A stretch of DNA of 35,780 nucleotides, from contig JBAZEI010000003.1 of assembly GCA_041654015.1 (NCBI GenBank), positions 1 to 35,780 of the forward strand, in the 5' to 3' direction. The DNA comes from Minisyncoccota bacterium (GTDB lineage: Bacteria > Patescibacteriota > Minisyncoccia > UBA6257). The position numbers and the translations under genes were made by a program. The notes below the pieces were generated by a model, which ran no database searches, was not told the origin of the DNA, and saw nothing but the letters and a program-made list of their open reading frames with translations. Numbering within the stretch: the first letter of the stretch is position 1; every line of letters begins with the position of its first letter. Shown here piece by piece: positions 2,204 through 29,066 of this stretch.

Positions 2204-2602
2204 TTATTTATCCAAAATTTCTGTTAGTTGTTGAATGGTTTTAAGGTCTAGTGTTTTTTTGGGAGGTGTTTTTGTTTCTGGCATTGGCTCTGGTGAAGGC
2301 CTTTTAGGAGACGGAGCAGCAGTTTGTTCTTTTTGCCAGAGATAATATTTAGGAAGCCAAAGATGCCGGATGGCAGACATAAAAAAGTTAGACACCGGCA
2401 TATTGTATATTTTTCCAAAAGCAAGAAATAATCCTAATGGAGCCAAGATAGCAAATAAAATCAGCCAAAGCCATAATTGTAAAAGGTTAAATAAAATAAT
2501 CAGCACTGCCGCGAAAGATAATAAAATCCATAACTGGTTAAAAGTAATTAACCCCATTAATTTTGTTTCTTCTTCTATAAATTTGGGCACTTGATAAGCC
2601 AT
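2204..2602 (-). CDS. PrgI/VirB3-like small membrane protein
   Basis: The N-terminus MAYQVPKFIEEETKLMGLITFNQLW is followed by two hydrophobic helices. It sits immediately upstream of the VirB4-like genes, which is the classic VirB3-VirB4 order. Family assignment is from memory of the PrgI-family signature. Confidence 0.6.
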   Translation of the reverse strand: MAYQVPKFIEEETKLMGLITFNQLWILLSFAAVLIILFNLLQLWLWLILFAILAPLGLFLAFGKIYNMPVSNFFMSAIRHLWLPKYYLWQKEQTAAPSPKRPSPEPMPETKTPPKKTLDLKTIQQLTEILDK

Positions 2603-2607
2603 AATTA

Positions 2608-3594
2608 TTAAGCTTTGCCAAAAGGGCTTTCCTCTTTGTATTTTTTATACTTTATGGGCTCAGGTGTGATCTCCTCTTGCTTTTTTTCTTGTTCCATTTC
2701 CTTTAATTTAACATCAAGCACATATGGTTTTTTGGCTGTTGATTTTTGAGGAATTTTCCCTTCTTTGAATTTTGTTTCCCGGCTAGAGATAATTGTGGAA
2801 GCTTCTATCGGAGGGATGGGTTTTATTTTTGGCGCTTCTTCCTCTCGCGCTTCAGGCTTTTCTCCACTTTGTTTTGATTTAAGCACACTTTTCATTTCTT
2901 CCACAATCTTTGGCTGGGGGTTCTTCTTAGCCATTGCTTCTAAAAGCTTGTTGCGAATTTCTTCTTGTTGAGTAGGAGTGGTTTTTGGGGCAATAACTTT
3001 TTTTAATTCATTAATTTTGCTGATAGGTTTTTCCACTTTTATCTCGGTAGGTTCAGGAAAAGAATATTGAGAAATGGTTTGCTGAGGGGGTTCTGAGGAT
3101 TCTGGCTTGGGAGAAATTTGTTCGGCCTGTGTTTCAACTAGTTGCTTTTTTTCTTCTTGCGCTTTTATTTCTGTTTCTATAATTTTCTTTGTTTCTGTAA
3201 TTTGTTGCTGTTCCTTTATAGTTTCTTGCGCTGGCGATATTTCTTCTGAGGATAGTGGCTGAGTTTTACTCTCTGGCATTAGTTCCTGCTCTTTTGGCTT
3301 TAATTCGTCTTTAAATTGATTAAAAATTTGCTTTTGGACGAGACCAATAATGATTCTTGATTGAGCAGGCGATATTTTAAGATAAGACTCCACATTTTGA
3401 GTAAAATCTATTGGTGATATTTCGCCTAAAAGGACATTGCCAACCATTTCTGTTAATCGCGTGGTTTGTTCAATATTTAAATTGGTTAAGGTAACTATAT
3501 TTTTTGTGATTTCTGTCAATTCATCTGAAATAAGGAAATCCTGAATTTTTTTAGGCGCTTCAGCGTATCTTTTTTCGAAATTATTTTCATTCAT
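2608..3594 (-). CDS. Hypothetical protein with a structured N-terminal ~100 aa followed by E/K/Q/P-rich low-complexity sequence
   Basis: 328-aa ORF tightly packed (3-5 nt gaps) between the VirB3-like and VirB6-like genes. No recognisable catalytic motif. Confidence 0.6.
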   Translation of the reverse strand: MNENNFEKRYAEAPKKIQDFLISDELTEITKNIVTLTNLNIEQTTRLTEMVGNVLLGEISPIDFTQNVESYLKISPAQSRIIIGLVQKQIFNQFKDELKPKEQELMPESKTQPLSSEEISPAQETIKEQQQITETKKIIETEIKAQEEKKQLVETQAEQISPKPESSEPPQQTISQYSFPEPTEIKVEKPISKINELKKVIAPKTTPTQQEEIRNKLLEAMAKKNPQPKIVEEMKSVLKSKQSGEKPEAREEEAPKIKPIPPIEASTIISSRETKFKEGKIPQKSTAKKPYVLDVKLKEMEQEKKQEEITPEPIKYKKYKEESPFGKA

Positions 3595-7928: not shown

Positions 7929-9050
7929 TTGTTGAGCAAATTGGCCAAAAAACAACAATTGATTTCCTTGCCTTTGCTTCAGATAGTTATTGGTCTGTTT
8001 ATATTTTCCCTTTTTTTGGGAAATTCTTATCTTTCTCCTCAAATAATGGTTGTCCAGCAACAAGGAGAAAGCTTTTTAATAAAAGAAGGCGGCAATACTG
8101 CATCTATCCAAGATAGTTTGCTGGCTAAGACTGCCTATGCCTATACAGAGAATATAAGCGTGGATGGAAATCAGATTATAGAAAACGGTGTTAGCGCTGA
8201 GGCGCGAGAAGACCCTTTGGCTTATTTAACCGTTGTAGATAACAGCAATTTTTTGGCAATTAGTTCACCAAGCGAGTTTTTATTGCCAGCGGCTCAAAGA
8301 AACGCCATAATTAATTATACGGTGAAAGAAGGTGATAGCCCCGGTAAAATTGCCGCTAATTTTGACATCAGCTTAAATACAGTTTTATGGGCTAATAACT
8401 TGAGCTCTAAATCTATAATTCAACCTGGCGACGAGCTTACTATTTTGCCAGTTTCAGGAGTTAATCATAAAGTAAAGAAAGGAGAGACTTTATCCGCGAT
8501 CGCTTCAAAATACAAAGCGTCAATTGACGAAATAATAGCTTTTAATAATTTAAAGGATAAAAGTTCTATCCAAATAGGACAAGAAATTATTATTCCCGGC
8601 GGTGTTTTAGGGTCTGTGGATTCTTCAACGAGCCAAAGGGTTTCATCATCTGGTTTAAAAGCAATGGCAGAAGATACAAGTTTCTGGCCTAATTATGAAG
8701 ATTTTTTTGCTTTTCCTGTTTCCGGCGGATGGAATAAAGGAATCCTTCATTATTATAACGCGGTGGATATCATTAACTCCTGCGGCAGTCCTATTTATGC
8801 CGCTGCTGACGGATTGGTAACTGAAGCTAAAGGGTCAGGCGCCTATAATTTAGGATATGGCAATATGGTAAAAATTCAGCATTATAATGCGACAATGACG
8901 GTTTATGGCCATTTAAATGAAGTTTTAGTTAAATCCGGAGATAAAGTTTATCAGGGGGATTTAATCGGACGGATGGGAGATACAGGAAACTCTAATGGCT
9001 GTCACCTACATTTTGAAGTGCGGGGAGCGCAGAATCCTTTTGCAAAATAA
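7929..9050 (+). CDS. LysM-domain M23-family peptidoglycan metallopeptidase
   Basis: Two LysM repeats (YTVKEGDSPGKIAANFDISLNTVLWANNL...; HKVKKGETLSAIASKYKASIDEIIAFNNL...). C-terminal M23 motifs: GSPIYAAADGLV...GYGNMVKIQH...YGHL...GDTGNSNGCHLHFEVRG. The annotated start is TTG; the exact start is uncertain. Confidence 0.88.
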   Translation: MLSKLAKKQQLISLPLLQIVIGLFIFSLFLGNSYLSPQIMVVQQQGESFLIKEGGNTASIQDSLLAKTAYAYTENISVDGNQIIENGVSAEAREDPLAYLTVVDNSNFLAISSPSEFLLPAAQRNAIINYTVKEGDSPGKIAANFDISLNTVLWANNLSSKSIIQPGDELTILPVSGVNHKVKKGETLSAIASKYKASIDEIIAFNNLKDKSSIQIGQEIIIPGGVLGSVDSSTSQRVSSSGLKAMAEDTSFWPNYEDFFAFPVSGGWNKGILHYYNAVDIINSCGSPIYAAADGLVTEAKGSGAYNLGYGNMVKIQHYNATMTVYGHLNEVLVKSGDKVYQGDLIGRMGDTGNSNGCHLHFEVRGAQNPFAK

Positions 9051-10619
9051 TTAATAATATTGATCCCAGGAAAAATCAATTTTATACTGCAAAGCTTCAG
9101 CCACTTCATTGAACCCGATAATTTCTTTATTATCTAAATCAGCTATTGTTCGGCTGATTTTTAAAATTCGATGGTAGGCTCTGGGCGATAAAGAATATTT
9201 GCCGACAGCTTGTTTCAGTAAATCTTTTGCCTCTTTATCTGTTGAACAAAATTGTTCTATATCGCCTATTTCCATTTCGCCATTACTGAAAATCGGAATA
9301 GAAGCTTTTCCTTTAGAGTTTCGTTCGCTGAATCTTTGCCTTTGTATTTTTTGGGCAAAAGCCACTTTGTCTCGGATTGAGTCGGATTTTTCAAGAGATT
9401 GTTGGTTATTTAATTCCTGAAATGATAAACGAGGCACTTCTATGATAATATCGATTCTATCTAAGAGAGGTCCAGAAATTTTTTTACGATAACGAATAAT
9501 TTCACCGGGGCTACAAGGGCATTCTTTTTTAGGGTCTCCAAAATAACCGCAAGGGCAAGGATTCATAGCGCCGATAAAAATAAATTTTGCAGGATAAATT
9601 ACTTTTCCGTGAACTCGGGAAACAGAAATTACCCCTTCTTCTAATGGTTGGCGCAGGGCTTCTAAAACATCTCTTTTAAACTCGGGCAATTCGTCAAGAA
9701 AAAGAACTCCTCGGTGAGCCAAAGTAATTTCTCCGGGTGTCGGCCAAGTGCCGCCTCCAATCAAAGCGGCGGTAGAGGCAGTGTGATGTGGCGCTTGAAA
9801 AGGATGCTGGAAAATTAATGGTTGGGAAGTGGGTAATAAGCCGCAAATACTATGAATCTTGGTTACCTCAAGGCATTCCTCCTCGCTCATTTTTGGAAGA
9901 ATTGATATTATTGCTTTGGCTAAAATTGTTTTTCCTGAGCCTGGCGGTCCTATCATTAAAACATTGTGGCAACCGCTGGCAGCAATTGTTAAAGCCCTTT
10001 TTGCTTTTTGTTGCCCCTTGATTTTAGAAAAATCAAGATAATTAGAAATAGGAGTGCTTAAAAGATGGTTAGATTTTTGATATGGCGGAATATTGATTTT
10101 ATTTTCTAAAAAAAGAATTAATTCTTTTAAATTTTTAACTCCGATAATTTTCAGATTTTTTGCGGCTACTGCCGCTTCAGCGGCATTTTCTATCGGTACA
10201 AAAAGATATTCATAACCCTTTTGTTCGGCCCACATAGCGATAGCTAAAATTCCTCGCACAGGTTTTACTAATCCTTCTAAAGTGAGTTCTCCAATAAAAA
10301 TTTTTTTCTCCGGATTAAAAGCAAACATTTGTTTTGAAGCTAAAAGATATCCTAAAGCGATAGATAGATCGTAATGAGAGCCATATTTTTTTATGTCAGT
10401 GGGCGCTAAATTAATCGTAATTTTACGGTTAGCCCTTAAGGGCGATTTGGCGCCGGTATTTTTAATAGCCGCCGAAACTCTTTGTTTTGCTTCTTTAATA
10501 GATGGATCAGGCAAGCCAACAATGTTGAATGAATGAAGTCCATTAGAGACATCGGTTTCTATTTCTATCAGGATTACTTCTAAGCCAAAAATGGCGGCAG
10601 AATATATTTTTGATAGCAT
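9051..10619 (-). CDS. comM: YifB/ComM-family Mg-chelatase-like AAA+ ATPase
   Basis: MLSKIYSAAIFGLEVILIEIETDVS is a typical ComM start. Walker A is MIGPPGSGKT and Walker B is VLFLDELPEF, with a ChlI-like C-terminal part. I prefer the ATG at 10617-10619 over the upstream TTG at 10646 used by the ORF track. Confidence 0.88.
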   Translation of the reverse strand: MLSKIYSAAIFGLEVILIEIETDVSNGLHSFNIVGLPDPSIKEAKQRVSAAIKNTGAKSPLRANRKITINLAPTDIKKYGSHYDLSIALGYLLASKQMFAFNPEKKIFIGELTLEGLVKPVRGILAIAMWAEQKGYEYLFVPIENAAEAAVAAKNLKIIGVKNLKELILFLENKINIPPYQKSNHLLSTPISNYLDFSKIKGQQKAKRALTIAASGCHNVLMIGPPGSGKTILAKAIISILPKMSEEECLEVTKIHSICGLLPTSQPLIFQHPFQAPHHTASTAALIGGGTWPTPGEITLAHRGVLFLDELPEFKRDVLEALRQPLEEGVISVSRVHGKVIYPAKFIFIGAMNPCPCGYFGDPKKECPCSPGEIIRYRKKISGPLLDRIDIIIEVPRLSFQELNNQQSLEKSDSIRDKVAFAQKIQRQRFSERNSKGKASIPIFSNGEMEIGDIEQFCSTDKEAKDLLKQAVGKYSLSPRAYHRILKISRTIADLDNKEIIGFNEVAEALQYKIDFSWDQYY

Positions 10620-20298: not shown

Positions 20299-20323
20299 GA
20301 TTTTTATCAAAATTTAATCAAAT

Positions 20324-20629
20324 TGTTTCACGCACAACATTGTGTGTAACAAAGTGTGAAACATTGTGTGAAACAAAGTGTGAAACATTTTTGAATTGTT
20401 TCACGCGCAACATTGTGTGAAACAAAGTGTGAAACAATATTAACAGAGCGGTTTTTAAAGTTTGGCTCAAAGATTTGGCTTATTTTAGCGCAAACCTGGT
20501 TAGAAAACCAGGTTTTGGCTTTATAGAGCCAAAAATAACTTTAATAGAGGGAAAATGAATCAAATTGTTTCACGCGCAACATTGTGTGAAACAAAGTGTG
20601 AAACATTGTGTGTAACAAAGTGTGAAACA
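20324..20629. repeat. Array of 13 TGTG(A/T)AACA sites in three blocks flanking a ~120-bp hairpin-rich core
   Basis: Ten direct copies at strict 12-bp phasing, starting at 20343, 20355, 20367, 20379; 20415, 20427; 20585, 20597, 20609, 20621. Each block is preceded by an inverted copy TGTTTCACG (20324, 20397, 20566). Confidence 0.95.
20492..20516 (+). terminator. Stem-loop AAACCTGGTT-AGAA-AACCAGGTTT followed by T; possible intrinsic terminator in the core of the repeat array
   Basis: 10-bp perfect stem with a T-run partly inside the stem. A second hairpin TTGGCT-TTATAG-AGCCAA follows at about 20514-20531. Confidence 0.4.
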
Positions 20630-20810
20630 ATTTAGTTTAGCGAATAGTGTTTATTGGGCAATATTAAAAACTTTCTTTGATTAAAATCCAGAGGATTTTA
20701 CAGAATGATTCTCTTCCAGTGTTTCCACCGGCTGTAATTTTTGATGAATTCTTTTCTATTAAAACGAGGCGCAAGGCGCCGAGCGAGGCGAATTCCGTTA
20801 TAAATGAATT

Positions 20811-20998
20811 TTGGTGGACCCGAGGGGAATCGAACCCCTGCTTCGGCAACTTGCCCGCCTAAATTGTTATTTGTGTGGACTTAGCGAGAATCGAACTCGC
20901 ATTTCCGCAATGCGAATGCGGTGTACTACCATTGTACTATAAGCCCAGCAATTTAGGCGGGTGAACGAATGCCGTGTAATGCCACTATACTACGGGCC
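20811..20998 (-). tRNA. Interrupted outer tRNA-like gene (Ala-type acceptor G3:U70, A73, encoded CCA) with a 121-nt anticodon loop that contains tRNA-Ala(CGC)
   Basis: Minus strand: GGGCCCG-TA-GTAT-AGTGGCA-TTAC-A-CGGCA[121 nt]TGCCG-AAGC-AGGGG-TTCGATT-CCCCT-CGGGTCC-A-CCA. The acceptor, D, anticodon and T stems all pair, and the T-loop is canonical. Confidence 0.55.
20875..20945 (-). tRNA. tRNA-Ala (anticodon CGC), nested inside the outer tRNA-like gene
   Basis: GGGCTTA-TA-GTAC-AATGGTA-GTAC-A-CCGCA-TTCGCAT-TGCGG-AAAT-GCGAG-TTCGATT-CTCGC-TAAGTCC-A. G3:U70 and A73 are present. CCA not encoded. Confidence 0.9.
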
Positions 20999-21119
20999 CA
21001 AAGGAATTAGAAATTCTTTTATTATTTATTTGTTTTAAATAGAATAGCAAGAATGATTTTAATTGACAAGCGATAATTCTGGGTGTATATTCGCAATAGC
21101 TTAAAAATAAAAATTAACT

Positions 21120-21587: not shown

Positions 21588-22673
21588 ATGAATATGTTGA
21601 AAGGAAAATTTGTAGTTTGCGCCTATTGTGGTAGAAAGATATATCGATCACTTACTGAATTACGCAGAAAATCTAAAACGGGAGTTTATTTTTGTAATCT
21701 ATCTTGTCATTGCGCTTGGAGAAATAAGCAAAGAAAAAGTAAGAAGAGATTCAAATTACTAAAAAATTTATGGGGATCGTGGTGTAATAGTAGCACTAGG
21801 ACCTGTGGAGTCCTCGGTACGGATGCAAATTCCGTCGATCCCCCATTTTTCTTTCTAAAATTTTTAAAGTCCAAGAAGAAAACTAACGCTTTATTTCTTA
21901 AGCGGCCATCAAAGAAAATTCTTTATAATCTTTATTGGAAAAAGAATTATACTCAAACTGAAATAGCTGAAATTTTTAATGCCACTCACACTAGCGTGAA
22001 GAGATGGTTTAACTATTATAGAATTCCAGTGAAGCGTCGAACTTTATCTTGTGGTCATAATCCTAATACTTTAAAGAATTTAAAATTAGGTCGCACAGAC
22101 AAAGCTATTAGAAAATCGGCAGAAGCAAGAAGAATTTATTCAAAAGAAAAACTCATTGAGAAAATAAAAGATTTTGTTCAAAAAGAAGGAAGAATTCCTA
22201 TAAAGAACGAATTTATTAATAATTCCTTCTATCCAGATTATGTTACTTACAGACATTATTTTGGCACTTGGAATAATGCTATCAAGGCAGCGGGCTACAA
22301 GCCAAATGAGCAATGGTTTACCTCAGGAAATTTATTTGCTAAAGATGGACATAAATGTGATTCAATTTCAGAAATAATCATTGACGATTGGTTGTTTGAA
22401 AATCATATTCCACACATTAGAGAGTATTTATACCCGGAAGGACGATATCGCTGTGATTTTATAGTTGGCGATACTTTTATTGAATTTTTTGGTTTATTTA
22501 ATATTTCTATTGTTCCAAATTATACTGAAATCATTAAAAGAAAAAAGGAAATATGTAGGAAATTTAATATTTCCCTTGTTGAACTCTACGAGAAGGATCT
22601 TTATAGATTAGATCAATCCTTAGGACCAAAAATTGGGGTTCCTTTTGCGTCGCATATTACAACAAAAACTTGA
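21588..22673 (+). CDS. Zinc-ribbon / HTH / homing-endonuclease-associated repeat / PD-(D/E)xK-like nuclease protein; the ORF reads straight through a tRNA-His gene
   Basis: N-terminus CAYCGRKIYRS...FCNLSCHC (zinc ribbon). HTH is YTQTEIAEIFNATHTSVKRWFNYY. GRIPIKNEFINNSFYPDYVTYRHYFGTWNNAIKAAGY is a homing-endonuclease-associated repeat style segment. The C-terminus DSISEIIIDDWLFENHIPHIREYLYPEGRYRCDFIVGDTFIEFFG looks like a restriction-endonuclease-like fold. There is no in-frame ATG after codon 3, and the first in-frame GTG/TTG lies inside the HTH. Confidence 0.6.
   Translation: MNMLKGKFVVCAYCGRKIYRSLTELRRKSKTGVYFCNLSCHCAWRNKQRKSKKRFKLLKNLWGSWCNSSTRTCGVLGTDANSVDPPFFFLKFLKSKKKTNALFLKRPSKKILYNLYWKKNYTQTEIAEIFNATHTSVKRWFNYYRIPVKRRTLSCGHNPNTLKNLKLGRTDKAIRKSAEARRIYSKEKLIEKIKDFVQKEGRIPIKNEFINNSFYPDYVTYRHYFGTWNNAIKAAGYKPNEQWFTSGNLFAKDGHKCDSISEIIIDDWLFENHIPHIREYLYPEGRYRCDFIVGDTFIEFFGLFNISIVPNYTEIIKRKKEICRKFNISLVELYEKDLYRLDQSLGPKIGVPFASHITTKT
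21772..21843 (+). tRNA. tRNA-His (anticodon GTG) with encoded G-1 and C73
   Basis: G(-1)-GGGATCG-TG-GTGT-AATAGTA-GCAC-T-AGGAC-CTGTGGA-GTCCT-CGGT-ACGGA-TGCAAAT-TCCGT-CGATCCC-C. G-1:C73 is the His hallmark. Unusual features: T-loop TGCAAAT (G at position 55) and a D-loop without GG. Confidence 0.75.
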
Positions 22674-24925: not shown

Positions 24926-25115
24926 GCAGGTAGAGTATAAGTGGCAGTATGGAACCCTTCCCTGCCTGCCATCGCCTTACGCGGGTGTAGCACAGTGGTA
25001 GTGCAACGGCCTTCCAAGCCGTGGACGTGGGTTCGATCCCCATCACCCGCTCATCGGCTCAGGCAGAAGGCGGGTAGGCAAGGTTCAGGCACGGGCTAGA
25101 GTCCCGTTACCCGCT
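24926..25115 (+). pseudogene. Second interrupted outer tRNA-like gene (Gly-type: U73, C2:G71, loop CTTCC..AA), partly degenerate, containing tRNA-Gly(TCC)
   Basis: GCAGGTA-GA-GTAT-AAGTGGCA-GTAT-G-GAACC[125 nt]GGTTC-AGGC-ACGGG-CTAGAGT-CCCGT-TACCCGC-T. The anticodon stem pairs perfectly and the acceptor pairs 6 of 7 (A3.C70). The T-loop CTAGAGT and G8 are non-canonical. Confidence 0.45.
24981..25051 (+). tRNA. tRNA-Gly (anticodon TCC), nested inside the outer tRNA-like gene
   Basis: GCGGGTG-TA-GCAC-AGTGGTA-GTGC-A-ACGGC-CTTCCAA-GCCGT-GGAC-GTGGG-TTCGATC-CCCAT-CACCCGC-T. Confidence 0.9.
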
Positions 25116-28789: not shown

Positions 28790-29066
28790 GAATGTAGCCT
28801 CCGCCTTCGCCAGCGTCTGAAGCCGCAGGCTATGGCGGACAAGCCCGCCTCCGCTTCCACCTCCGCTAAAGCTTCGGTGGATAAAAAAGCTACGGTGGAC
28901 AAGCCCGCCTCCGCTTCCACCTCCGCTAAAGCTTCGGTGGATAAAAAAGCTACGGTGGACAAGCCCGCCTTCGCTAAAGCTACGGCGGGCAGGGAAGAAT
29001 CTCTCGTTTCCTTTCAGTCATTCTGAGGCCGTAAGGCCGAAGAATCTCTCGCGAATGCGAGAATTA
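28790..29066. repeat. GC-rich structured repeat region immediately upstream of gyrA
   Basis: A 60-bp unit GGACAAGCCCGCCTCCGCTTCCACCTCCGCTAAAGCTTCGGTGGATAAAAAAGCTACGGT occurs at 28837-28896 and is perfectly repeated at 28897-28956, with a partial third copy. Hairpin GCCCGCC-14 nt-GGCGGGC at 28963-28990. Direct repeat GAAGAATCTCTCG at 28995 and 29039. Further hairpins: ATTCTGAGGCC-GTAA-GGCCGAAGAAT (GNRA loop) and TCTCGC-GAAT-GCGAGA. Confidence 0.9.

Follow-up and report, generated by a model that had tools for sequence, protein, structure and literature searches.

A tRNA gene that carries a complete second tRNA gene inside itself (hereafter, a nest) lies on the minus strand of contig JBAZEI010000003.1 of the Minisyncoccota genome assembly GCA_041654015.1, of which we analyzed positions 1 to 35,780, the whole 35,780-nucleotide (nt) stretch being referred to below as the window. 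In this nest a complete tRNA-Ala(CGC) gene, flanked by a perfect 13-bp inverted repeat (the clamp), interrupts the anticodon loop of another Ala-type tRNA gene that is itself well formed. It is probable that a clamp-flanked replacement tRNA cassette inactivated and replaced the resident gene here, as one instance of a family that recurs in Patescibacteria. The nested arrangement, the 121-nt insert, and the 13-bp helix had all been pointed out in an initial annotation and are present in the minus-strand sequence; the ends given there (20811 to 20998) were slightly off, as G1 of the outer gene lies at 20999 and position 20811 falls one base past its CCA. A second nest, formed by tRNA-Gly(TCC) (24981 to 25051) inside tRNA-Gly(TCC) (24926 to 25115), had been overlooked.

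The outer Ala gene was read directly from the sequence in two parts. Its 5′ part (20966 to 20999; tRNA positions 1 to 35) reads GGGCCCG TA GTAT AGTGGCA TTAC A CGGCA TTCG from 20999 to 20966, and its 3′ part (20812 to 20849; tRNA position 38 to A73, then CCA) reads T TGCCG AAGC AGGGG TTCGATT CCCCT CGGGTCC A CCA from 20849 to 20812. These supply an acceptor stem (GGGCCCG/CGGGTCC) that includes G3:U70, a D arm (GTAT-AGTGGCA-TTAC) of 3 bp plus a U13/U22 mismatch, an anticodon stem (CGGCA/TGCCG), a T arm (AGGGG-TTCGATT-CCCCT), A73 at 20815, and a CCA at 20814 to 20812 that is missing from the other tRNA 3′ flanks read in the window. The 121 nt between the two strands of the anticodon stem consist of TTCGTTCA, CCCGCCTAAATTG, CT, the inner tRNA, CACAAATAA, CAATTTAGGCGGG, and CAAGT. 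Within them, a 116-nt cassette (20850 to 20965) is missing from the orthologous gene of a relative: TTCA, the 5′ clamp arm CCCGCCTAAATTG (20949 to 20961), CT, the inner tRNA (20876 to 20946), CACAAATAA, the 3′ clamp arm CAATTTAGGCGGG (20854 to 20866), and CAAG. The two arms form the perfect inverted repeat and are paired with each other in the minimum-free-energy fold. The inner gene (71 nt, with G3:U70 and A73 and no encoded CCA) looks functional: it is called tRNA-Ala(cgc) by ARAGORN and as a tRNA by Rfam, with a score of 70.3 bits. In its interrupted state the outer gene is called by neither Rfam nor ARAGORN, including the intron mode (0 to 300 nt) that had been proposed as a check; weak tRNA-like and tmRNA-like (transfer-messenger RNA) Rfam matches are confined to its 3′ part, and ARAGORN recovers a junction-spanning tRNA only after in silico excision of the insert.

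The minimum-free-energy fold of the 188-nt nest is a cloverleaf inside a cloverleaf, and 200 dinucleotide shuffles gave no fold of equal stability (z = −4.2). By consensus scan, promoter-like and terminator-like sites occur only outside the outer halves. Putative promoter hexamer pairs upstream of the outer 5′ part (21021 to 21069, minus strand) appear to be the only plausible promoters for the nest, and the promoter-like motif TTGTCA...TTGCTATTCT is found upstream of the gene in a relative as well; about 32 nt downstream of the outer CCA, a consensus match identifies a terminator-like hairpin, GGCGCCTTGCGCC, followed by a T-run (20768 to 20780, minus strand). With no promoter or terminator of its own, the inner tRNA would be transcribed from the resident promoter, the dead outer halves serving as leader and trailer; it would be released by RNase P and 3′-end processing, and its CCA would be added enzymatically. 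The leader-trailer duplex has a predicted energy of −29.6 kcal/mol in the Ala nest. Such a helix would probably keep the inner tRNA folding as an independent domain, preventing mispairing with outer halves to which it is about 80% identical.

All of the sequences considered here are short-read metagenome assemblies, and one reading of the nest is a chimeric contig built from reads of two strains with different tRNA-Ala alleles. Relatives' contigs do often break in repeats adjoining the Ala locus, as this reading would expect. Yet a Logan contig (L092; run SRR28876184, seen in 3 samples) is 100% identical to the window over 543 nt across the Ala nest, which excludes a one-off misassembly, and the Gly nest is matched at 100% in two more assemblies (L230 and L232). 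Nests on relatives' contigs (numbered with the prefix L throughout) repeat likewise across independent runs and assemblers: that of L223 recurs in L224 and those of L228 in L229, and L093, L095, and L096 come from three separate Joint Genome Institute (JGI) samples. The identities shared by inner and outer genes at the junctions span only 6 nt, far below assembler k-mer sizes, and misjoining would not be expected to yield a perfect inverted repeat. We regard an assembly artifact as having a negligible chance of explaining these loci.

The host is a cellular bacterium of the Candidate Phyla Radiation (CPR), of Paceibacteria type, and not a phage. The window codes for trigger factor, NusA, GyrA, ClpP, YraN, and similar housekeeping proteins at a G+C content of about 35%, and nearly every named relative of its NusA bears the annotation Pacebacteria, Paceibacterota, Parcubacteria, or Patescibacteria. 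A phage collection had no similarity to the Ala locus, and a viral collection held no copy of the inner tRNA 3′ end. A genome-collection scan seeded with NusA yielded mostly distant relatives (at most 69% identity, with low-complexity peptide seeds), among which only contig L007 was useful.

Comparison with relatives identifies the outer gene as the resident and, as far as the sequences of L001, L007, and L223 allow us to say, the inner gene as foreign to the lineage of the window. Contig L001 matches the window at 99.9% identity as far as position 20390, after which identity is about 78%. At the same locus it has an uninterrupted, ordinary tRNA-Ala(CGC), the kind of relative that the initial annotation had suggested seeking; this gene is about 90% identical to the outer gene and has the same anticodon stem (CGGCA/TGCCG) and T arm (AGGGG/CCCCT), with one compensatory 5:68 change (we call this the O-type). 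In the Paceibacterota metagenome-assembled genome L007, a free-standing tRNA-Ala(CGC) without clamp arms, one base off the inner gene of the window (the I-type), sits upstream of NusA and YraN in the same orientation. L223 (225 kb) is syntenic with the window through ClpP, NusA, YraN, ferredoxin, and an endonuclease gene to a DUF11 protein, and its nest has the reverse order, a disrupted I-type gene enclosing an intact O-type gene, with a helix of a different 12-bp sequence. Its junction motifs (TT|TTTA-CCCCC...GGGGG-CAAG|T) are the same as those of the window, and the more general form TT|TTYA-CCC...GGG-CAAG|T is common to all four Ala nests, namely those of the window, L223, L093, and L094. 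Among related lineages the Ala locus thus occurs in four states (either type alone, or either type inside the other), with presence/absence polymorphism at one syntenic position (no nest in L001, I in O in the window, O in I in L223); the Gly locus is polymorphic likewise. Short native flanks travel with the cargo: the spacer CTAATATA of the L223 cassette is the 3′ flank of the L001 gene, and the 3′ spacer CACAAATAA of the window cassette matches the native 3′ flank (CAAATAA) of the L223 I-type gene. In all, three of the seven tRNA genes in the window differ from L001 by the arrival of a foreign tRNA copy. The suggestion in the initial annotation that a tRNA-carrying element had entered the anticodon loop is therefore supported by the uninterrupted gene of L001, the free-standing inner type of L007, and the reciprocal nest of L223, as well as by the five amino acid specificities described below; its description of the target as a paralog is less apt, the target being better described as an allelic isoacceptor gene.

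The boundary of high identity to L001 coincides with another feature of the region. Between YraN and the Ala nest lie three copies of an 82-nt repeat (TTGTTTCACGCGCAACATTGTGTGAAACAAAGTGTGAAACA...; 20310 to 20633), and identity to L001 falls from 99.9% to about 78% exactly at these repeats, where most relatives' contigs end; the region is probably both a recombination hotspot and an assembly breakpoint. Such a repeat-rich, recombinogenic setting, with the drop in identity to L001 beside the nest, is what might be expected had local rearrangement produced the nest in the absence of any mobile entity, by tandem duplication of a tRNA gene (tRNA genes do duplicate locally) followed by deletions or template switching. 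The inner and outer Ala genes are nevertheless about 20% divergent and each matches free-standing genes of other lineages, and local events would leave the constant junction motifs, the repeated use of the site between positions 35 and 36, the arm motifs common between genomes, and the reciprocal nest without explanation. We consider this origin very improbable.

The Gly nest, on the plus strand, has the same architecture. Its outer 5′ part (24926 to 24960) ends in CTTC at position 35; a 118-nt cassette (24961 to 25078) follows, composed of the arm CCTGCCTGCC, ATCGCC-TTAC, the inner tRNA-Gly(TCC), CATC, and the arm GGCGGGTAGG; and the outer 3′ part (25079 to 25115) reads CAA, GGTTC, and then a T-loop of CTAGAGT, such that the outer anticodon loop is split exactly as CTTC|CAA. 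The inner gene is called by ARAGORN and scores 72.9 bits with Rfam, and the leader-trailer duplex has an energy of −37.6 kcal/mol. Compared with its intact ortholog in L001 (6034 to 6105), the outer gene is degenerate, with G3A (leaving an A3:C70 mismatch), U8G, T54C, C56A, and one extra D-loop base, and ARAGORN did not recover it after any excision. Visible decay of outer halves in related cases had been named in the initial annotation among the signs of a plain insertional pseudogene; such decay is found here, in the Gly nest of the same window.

Further nests came from contigs L228 and L229 and from four JGI contigs (L093 to L096), the latter found by scanning metagenomes for cases in which a second T-loop lies at too short a distance behind the inner Ala 3′ end. 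A comparable scan of viral contigs for T-loops in too close succession gave more than 120 matches; those inspected were ordinary dense tandem tRNA arrays, for which an in silico deletion test was too noisy, and this route was abandoned. The known nests cover five amino acid specificities (Ala, Gly, Arg, Val, and Ile). They include two further cases of Ala(CGC) inside an Ala-type outer gene, two cases of Arg(CCT) in the D-loop of Arg(CCT), and a Val(CAC) gene behind a truncated Val(CAC) 5′ half ending in TTCA (all among L093 to L096); and, in L228/L229, Arg(TCT) in Arg(TCT) split as TTTC|TAA, Ile(TAT) in Ile(TAT) split as CTTA|TAA, and a Val(TAC) gene that takes the place of the anticodon arm of a Val-like gene. 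In L228 (18625 to 18699), the inner gene and the outer gene that it disrupts are thus both tRNA-Ile(TAT); the anticodon TAT is an uncommon bacterial way to decode AUA.

Common rules emerge from this collection. Insertions usually either separate position 35 of the anticodon from position 36 (seen for Gly, Arg-TCT, Ile-TAT, Val-CAC, and the window Ala) or fall in the D-loop (the two Arg-CCT cases), and cargo and target have the same anticodon wherever both are readable. Arm ends are usually CCYGCC/GGCRGG, recurring in most nests, and a 12-mer, CCTGCCATCGCC, is common to the Gly arm of the window and the Arg arms of L093. Clamp sequence differs in all four Ala nests and the helix is kept, at 13, 12, 11+1, and 7 bp, with G:U pairs tolerated; we propose that helices persist while clamp interiors vary because the clamp would insulate the inner fold. 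Across the window and the first 96 loci, leader-trailer duplex energies are bimodal: nested genes lie at or below −24.8 kcal/mol and un-nested genes at −18.4 kcal/mol or weaker. Native flank on the cargo amounts to only about 2 to 9 nt on each side. No target-site duplication was found at any nest junction, insertions being exact or accompanied by the loss of 2 to 4 loop bases, and no relationship of the arm sequences to the outer tRNA or its flanks (for example, an inverted target duplication) was seen. That arm ends recur and the insertion site is fixed speaks for a specific enzymatic process; the identity match between cargo and target suggests that insertion depends on homology or else that only compensated insertions have survived.

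Hairpins of the clamp type also occur in tRNA loops with no cargo, for example TCCGCC-TTT-GGCGGA and CCCGCC-TGT-GGCGGG. Two loci (L094, 640 to 990, and L093, 7600 to 7720, both on the minus strand) resemble tRNA graveyards. One is an outer tRNA-Arg(CCT) with a D-loop that contains several cargo-less GC hairpins and with a further hairpin at position 37/38; also present are a stray tRNA 3′ end with a second copy of the arm GGCGATGGCAGG and, at about 573 to 546 of L094, an orphan tRNA 5′ half followed by a CCCGCC...GGCGGG hairpin. Taken as a whole, these remains suggest repeated rounds of insertion. In the window itself, between a gene of the metallo-beta-lactamase fold and gyrA, a 60-nt array of GC-rich palindromic units in tandem (28797 to 28990) includes the hairpin GCCCGCCTTCGCTAAAGCTACGGCGGGC; the ends of the array resemble the Ala clamp and the Ala right junction (GGCGGGCA), and judging by this resemblance the array may be a free-standing relative of the clamp arms.

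Throughout the family, inner genes are intact, and several outer genes show visible decay. The inner genes score 54 to 73 bits on the Rfam tRNA model (median, about 69) and are among the top-scoring tRNAs of their loci. Among the outer genes, those for Arg and Val in L228 have U55C, and that for Val is also without its anticodon arm; the Ala outers of L223, L093, and L094 have one stem mismatch each; and the L094 Arg outer is riddled with extra hairpins. The L228 lesion is identical in two outers of one genome (17772 to 17844 and 9711 to 9782; T-loop TCCGAxT), either by chance or because dead tRNA genes may have a mutational bias. None of the four Ala nests retains the outer anticodon: what is left of the loop is TT(CG) at its 5′ end and T at its 3′ end, and no choice of excision boundaries in any of them gives CGC in a 7-nt loop. 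Excision of the window Ala insert in silico most commonly leads ARAGORN to call Thr-CGT and Leu-CAA. A mistranslating tRNA with a CGU anticodon on an alanine-identity body, which had been raised as a possible product, finds no support. As part of the replacement reading as a whole, then, the inner tRNA is probably the working gene, and the outer halves are probably functionless and decaying over time.

Set against known classes of interrupted or invaded tRNA genes, the nest lacks at least one defining feature of each that could be tested. A formal scan of 9 nests for the bulge-helix-bulge (BHB) motif gave 0 to 1 matches each, compared with 0.6 to 1.1 in shuffles, and no match had both sites at the boundaries; a BHB-type tRNA intron was rejected on this basis. 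Two other features of such introns do not characterize the family either: restoration of a cognate loop by excision fails in the Ala nests and holds for Gly, Arg-TCT, and Ile-TAT, and exons under purifying selection are not what is seen, as the window Gly, L228, and L094 Arg outers carry lesions. Among the 20 larger open reading frames (ORFs) scanned in these 35.8 kb of genome, there was no Pfam match to EndA or RtcB. Rfam returned only tRNAs, with no intron or ribozyme family at the gathering threshold or at an E value of ≤10. Group I introns (expected to be about 200 nt long or longer and to have a conserved catalytic core that a covariance model would recognize) and small ribozymes were rejected, there being no core at permissive thresholds and an insert of only 116 to 121 nt, inclusive of a 71-nt tRNA. 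A split tRNA of the Nanoarchaeum type was rejected because the two halves share one locus, enclosed by one promoter-like and one terminator-like site, with no BHB, and integrase-mediated integration at an attachment (att) site because there are no direct repeats, no junction that regenerates a tRNA, and no recombinase; the intact tRNA is instead wholly inside an insert of 116 nt that has no ORF. Of the features typical of miniature inverted-repeat transposable elements (MITEs), terminal inverted repeats are present (the perfect 13 bp); as to dispersed copies, the Ala arm is unique in the window, related GC palindromes occur at 28797 to 28990 and in other nests, and the 12-mer noted above occurs in both the window and L093.

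Several of these observations weigh against replacement by a mobile cassette. The outer Ala gene of the window is structurally perfect apart from the insertion, which fits a recent insertion, and selection may still act on it. Several insertions are exact: taking out the insert would give the Gly, Arg-TCT, and Ile-TAT outers back a 7-nt anticodon loop with the cognate anticodon, and the Arg-CCT outers their D-loop, which is also how an intron would appear. No transposase, integrase, or recombinase domain was found in the window ORFs scanned, and neither a target-site duplication nor a second copy of the Ala arm CCCGCCTAAATTG was found in the window; we infer the mobility of the cassette from its distribution. 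Arm interiors are not conserved, unlike those of classical terminal inverted repeats. To these must be added the short-read origin of the assemblies mentioned above and the L093 and L094 nests, which are without the candidate endonuclease gene discussed below in the stretch examined.

The perfect outer cloverleaf and the restorable loops are also the main reasons to entertain a new kind of tRNA intron or cis-split tRNA, in which the clamp and inner tRNA would be removed, or the halves paired via the clamp, and both tRNAs would function; the initial annotation had offered an intron or split tRNA of this kind. It is relevant that intervening sequences are unusually common in the structural-RNA genes of CPR bacteria, as described for rRNA in a study that does not mention tRNA (PMC11270868). 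This reading is hard to reconcile with BHB motifs at chance level and absent from the junctions, with the lack of any intron or ribozyme family match, with four Ala nests that cannot regain an Ala anticodon, and with outer genes that are without universally conserved bases or whole arms. Reciprocal nesting and un-nested alleles at the same locus show, moreover, that the outer gene is dispensable. We judge an intron or split tRNA to be quite unlikely.

Replacement by a cassette, which we favor, would have proceeded as follows. A roughly 116-nt noncoding cassette would have inactivated the resident tRNA-Ala(CGC) between anticodon positions 35 and 36, carrying the whole of an allelic tRNA-Ala(CGC) that had been copied from a related lineage, plus some bases of native chromosomal flank, all enclosed by a GC-based inverted repeat. 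More generally, clamp-flanked tRNA cassettes and cargo-less GC hairpins would enter loop-coding positions of an isoacceptor gene and replace it. Our working guess for their movement is a homing-like process begun by a break in the tRNA gene, possibly made by a tRNA-associated family of Vsr-like endonucleases. A mechanistic variant would place the origin in RNA: a tRNA would be cut in an exposed anticodon loop or D-loop (for example, by a toxin-type tRNase), an RNA ligase would close the gap with a pre-tRNA of the same family that still had its short leader and trailer, and the chimera would be reverse transcribed, the cDNA recombining into the gene via the outer halves. This would account for the match between cargo and target isoacceptors, and it sits well with targets that are single-stranded loops of folded tRNA, with native flanks of only about 2 to 9 nt per side, as in a processed pre-tRNA, and with the G:U pairs tolerated in clamps. 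A reverse transcriptase gene lies about 4 kb from the L093 nests; that 9-kb contig, which has three tRNA nests or remnants, encodes a 332-amino-acid reverse transcriptase (RVT_1) and an RmuC-family gene (2315 to 3313, minus strand, and 8157 to 9194, plus strand). Left unexplained by the variant are the GC-rich arms with their common CCYGCC/GGCRGG ends and the cargo-less hairpins, and no reverse transcriptase was found among the window ORFs scanned. We know of no bacterial precedent for such a pathway and think it unlikely, if less so than an intron.

A candidate driver for DNA-level movement of the cassettes is encoded about 600 nt from the Ala nest, and it is this proximity that makes its family a candidate. 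The ORF at 21588 to 22673 (plus strand) belongs to a putative Vsr-like, PD-(D/E)xK homing-endonuclease-like family of about 360 to 400 amino acids with a tRNA-His gene in frame inside it. It has four parts: a zinc ribbon, a helix-turn-helix (HTH), a "homing endonuclease associated repeat" (PF18780; E = 5e-14), and a C-terminal domain that AlphaFold2 models confidently in the order alpha-beta-beta-beta-alpha-beta. The best Protein Data Bank (PDB) match of this domain is the catalytic domain of the homing endonuclease I-Bth0305I (probability, 1.0; TM-score, 0.67, target normalized), followed by Vsr and TnsA. Sequence searches against PDB and NCBIfam gave only weak HTH and zinc-ribbon matches, and the nuclease domain was found by structure search alone. 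The embedded tRNA-His (21773 to 21844) codes for 25 residues, WGSWCNSSTRTCGVLGTDANSVDPP, that are modeled as a disordered linker; they are conserved in many full-length Parcubacteria homologs and missing from more distant ones. Homologs without an embedded tRNA lie 52 to 115 nt downstream of tRNA genes. In L001 the ORF is absent, and a different, canonical, free-standing tRNA-His is present.

The embedded tRNA-His has an unusual elbow in three lineages (window, 21773 to 21844; L223, 10285 to 10356; L228, 10306 to 10377), with a T-loop of TGCAAAT (G at position 55) and a D-loop of AATAGTA that has no GG; the tRNA-His of L001 is canonical, with GG in the D-loop and a T-loop of TTCAAAT. This may reflect covariation of the 18:55 tertiary pair or the constraint of simultaneous protein coding.

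Parts of the arrangement recall several known systems. Archaeal tRNA introns can carry functional RNAs such as C/D box guides, and BHB introns and split or permuted tRNAs resemble the nests in interrupting the anticodon loop or D-loop beside a helix at variable, noncanonical positions; here, however, the host is bacterial, junctions have no BHB, the Ala loop is unrestorable, the outer "exons" are in decay, and what is inserted is itself a whole tRNA with the specificity of the gene around it. In bacteria, group I introns can interrupt the anticodon loop of a tRNA gene, in some cases accompanied by a homing endonuclease such as I-Ssp6803I. With these the nests have in common the anticodon-loop target and a homing-type presence/absence pattern among relatives, whereas they have no core, are too short, and keep function through a replacement gene rather than by splicing. 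MITEs, repetitive extragenic palindromic (REP) elements, Rickettsia palindromic elements (RPEs), and the GC clusters of yeast mitochondria are short palindromic sequences; the cassettes, too, are short, noncoding, and bounded by inverted repeats, forming GC-rich palindromes in an AT-rich genome, with cargo-less hairpins in tRNA loops and intergenic arrays. They differ from MITE, REP, and RPE elements in having no target-site duplication and no conserved arm interiors, in carrying a functional tRNA, and in targeting loop positions of an isoacceptor gene. Engineered tRNA scaffolds are a laboratory method in which an RNA is inserted in the anticodon arm of a tRNA to stabilize it; the nests likewise place a helix-closed structured RNA where the anticodon loop would be, but their outer body decays and is accordingly not kept as a scaffold.

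Two further comparisons concern mobile DNA. Integrative elements (phages, integrative and conjugative elements, and pNOB8-type elements) enter tRNA genes, bring a replacement for the displaced part, and leave tRNA fragments, as at the tRNA-Thr locus of Caldiarchaeum (PMC3293823). In both cases there is foreign DNA in a tRNA gene, tRNA sequence that preserves function, footprints of the resident gene, and polymorphism in the population. The integrative elements span kilobases and have a recombinase, att direct repeats, and a hybrid tRNA at the junction, in contrast to about 116 to 120 nt of noncoding DNA with no direct repeats, a whole tRNA, and both resident halves flanking it. SegB of phage T4 is a free-standing homing endonuclease in a tRNA gene cluster (PMC2330249). 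A homing-endonuclease-like gene is similarly located in the tRNA cluster of the window and beside tRNA genes of relatives, and nearby tRNA alleles differ from those of relatives without the gene. Unlike the nests, homing of the SegB type is allele replacement by coconversion, and cleavage of tRNA genes by the window protein is hypothetical.

A broader proposal, which we advance tentatively and with somewhat more doubt than conviction, is that Patescibacteria harbor a new class of selfish element, a replacement cassette of about 120 nt that would invade loop positions of tRNA genes (35/36 or the D-loop) and spare its host not by splicing but by bringing a complete, clamp-insulated copy of the tRNA. 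Alleles would overwrite one another repeatedly and in either order, giving rise to Russian-doll nests and graveyards, and may be driven by Vsr-like homing endonucleases, one subfamily of which has an essential tRNA-His in its own frame. The overwriting of tRNA genes by each other via nests is apparently undescribed: a full-text literature search turned up neither nested tRNAs nor tRNA introns for CPR bacteria or Patescibacteria, an absence that is no proof of novelty.

For annotation, standard tRNA finders report the inner gene only, such that the nest is silently missed, and outer halves are at risk of being misannotated as pseudogenes, introns, or split tRNAs. The locus also shows the tRNA scaffold geometry in a natural setting, and it yields a set of candidate homing endonucleases specific to tRNA genes. 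If the proposal is true, it would add a third way for a mobile element to reside in an essential gene, by supplying a whole, helix-insulated spare copy, alongside self-removal (introns and inteins) and the rebuilding of gene ends (integrases). It would likewise explain contig breaks and the collapse of identity at tRNA clusters in CPR metagenomes, as well as the turnover and horizontal spread of tRNA genes in the very small genomes of these bacteria.

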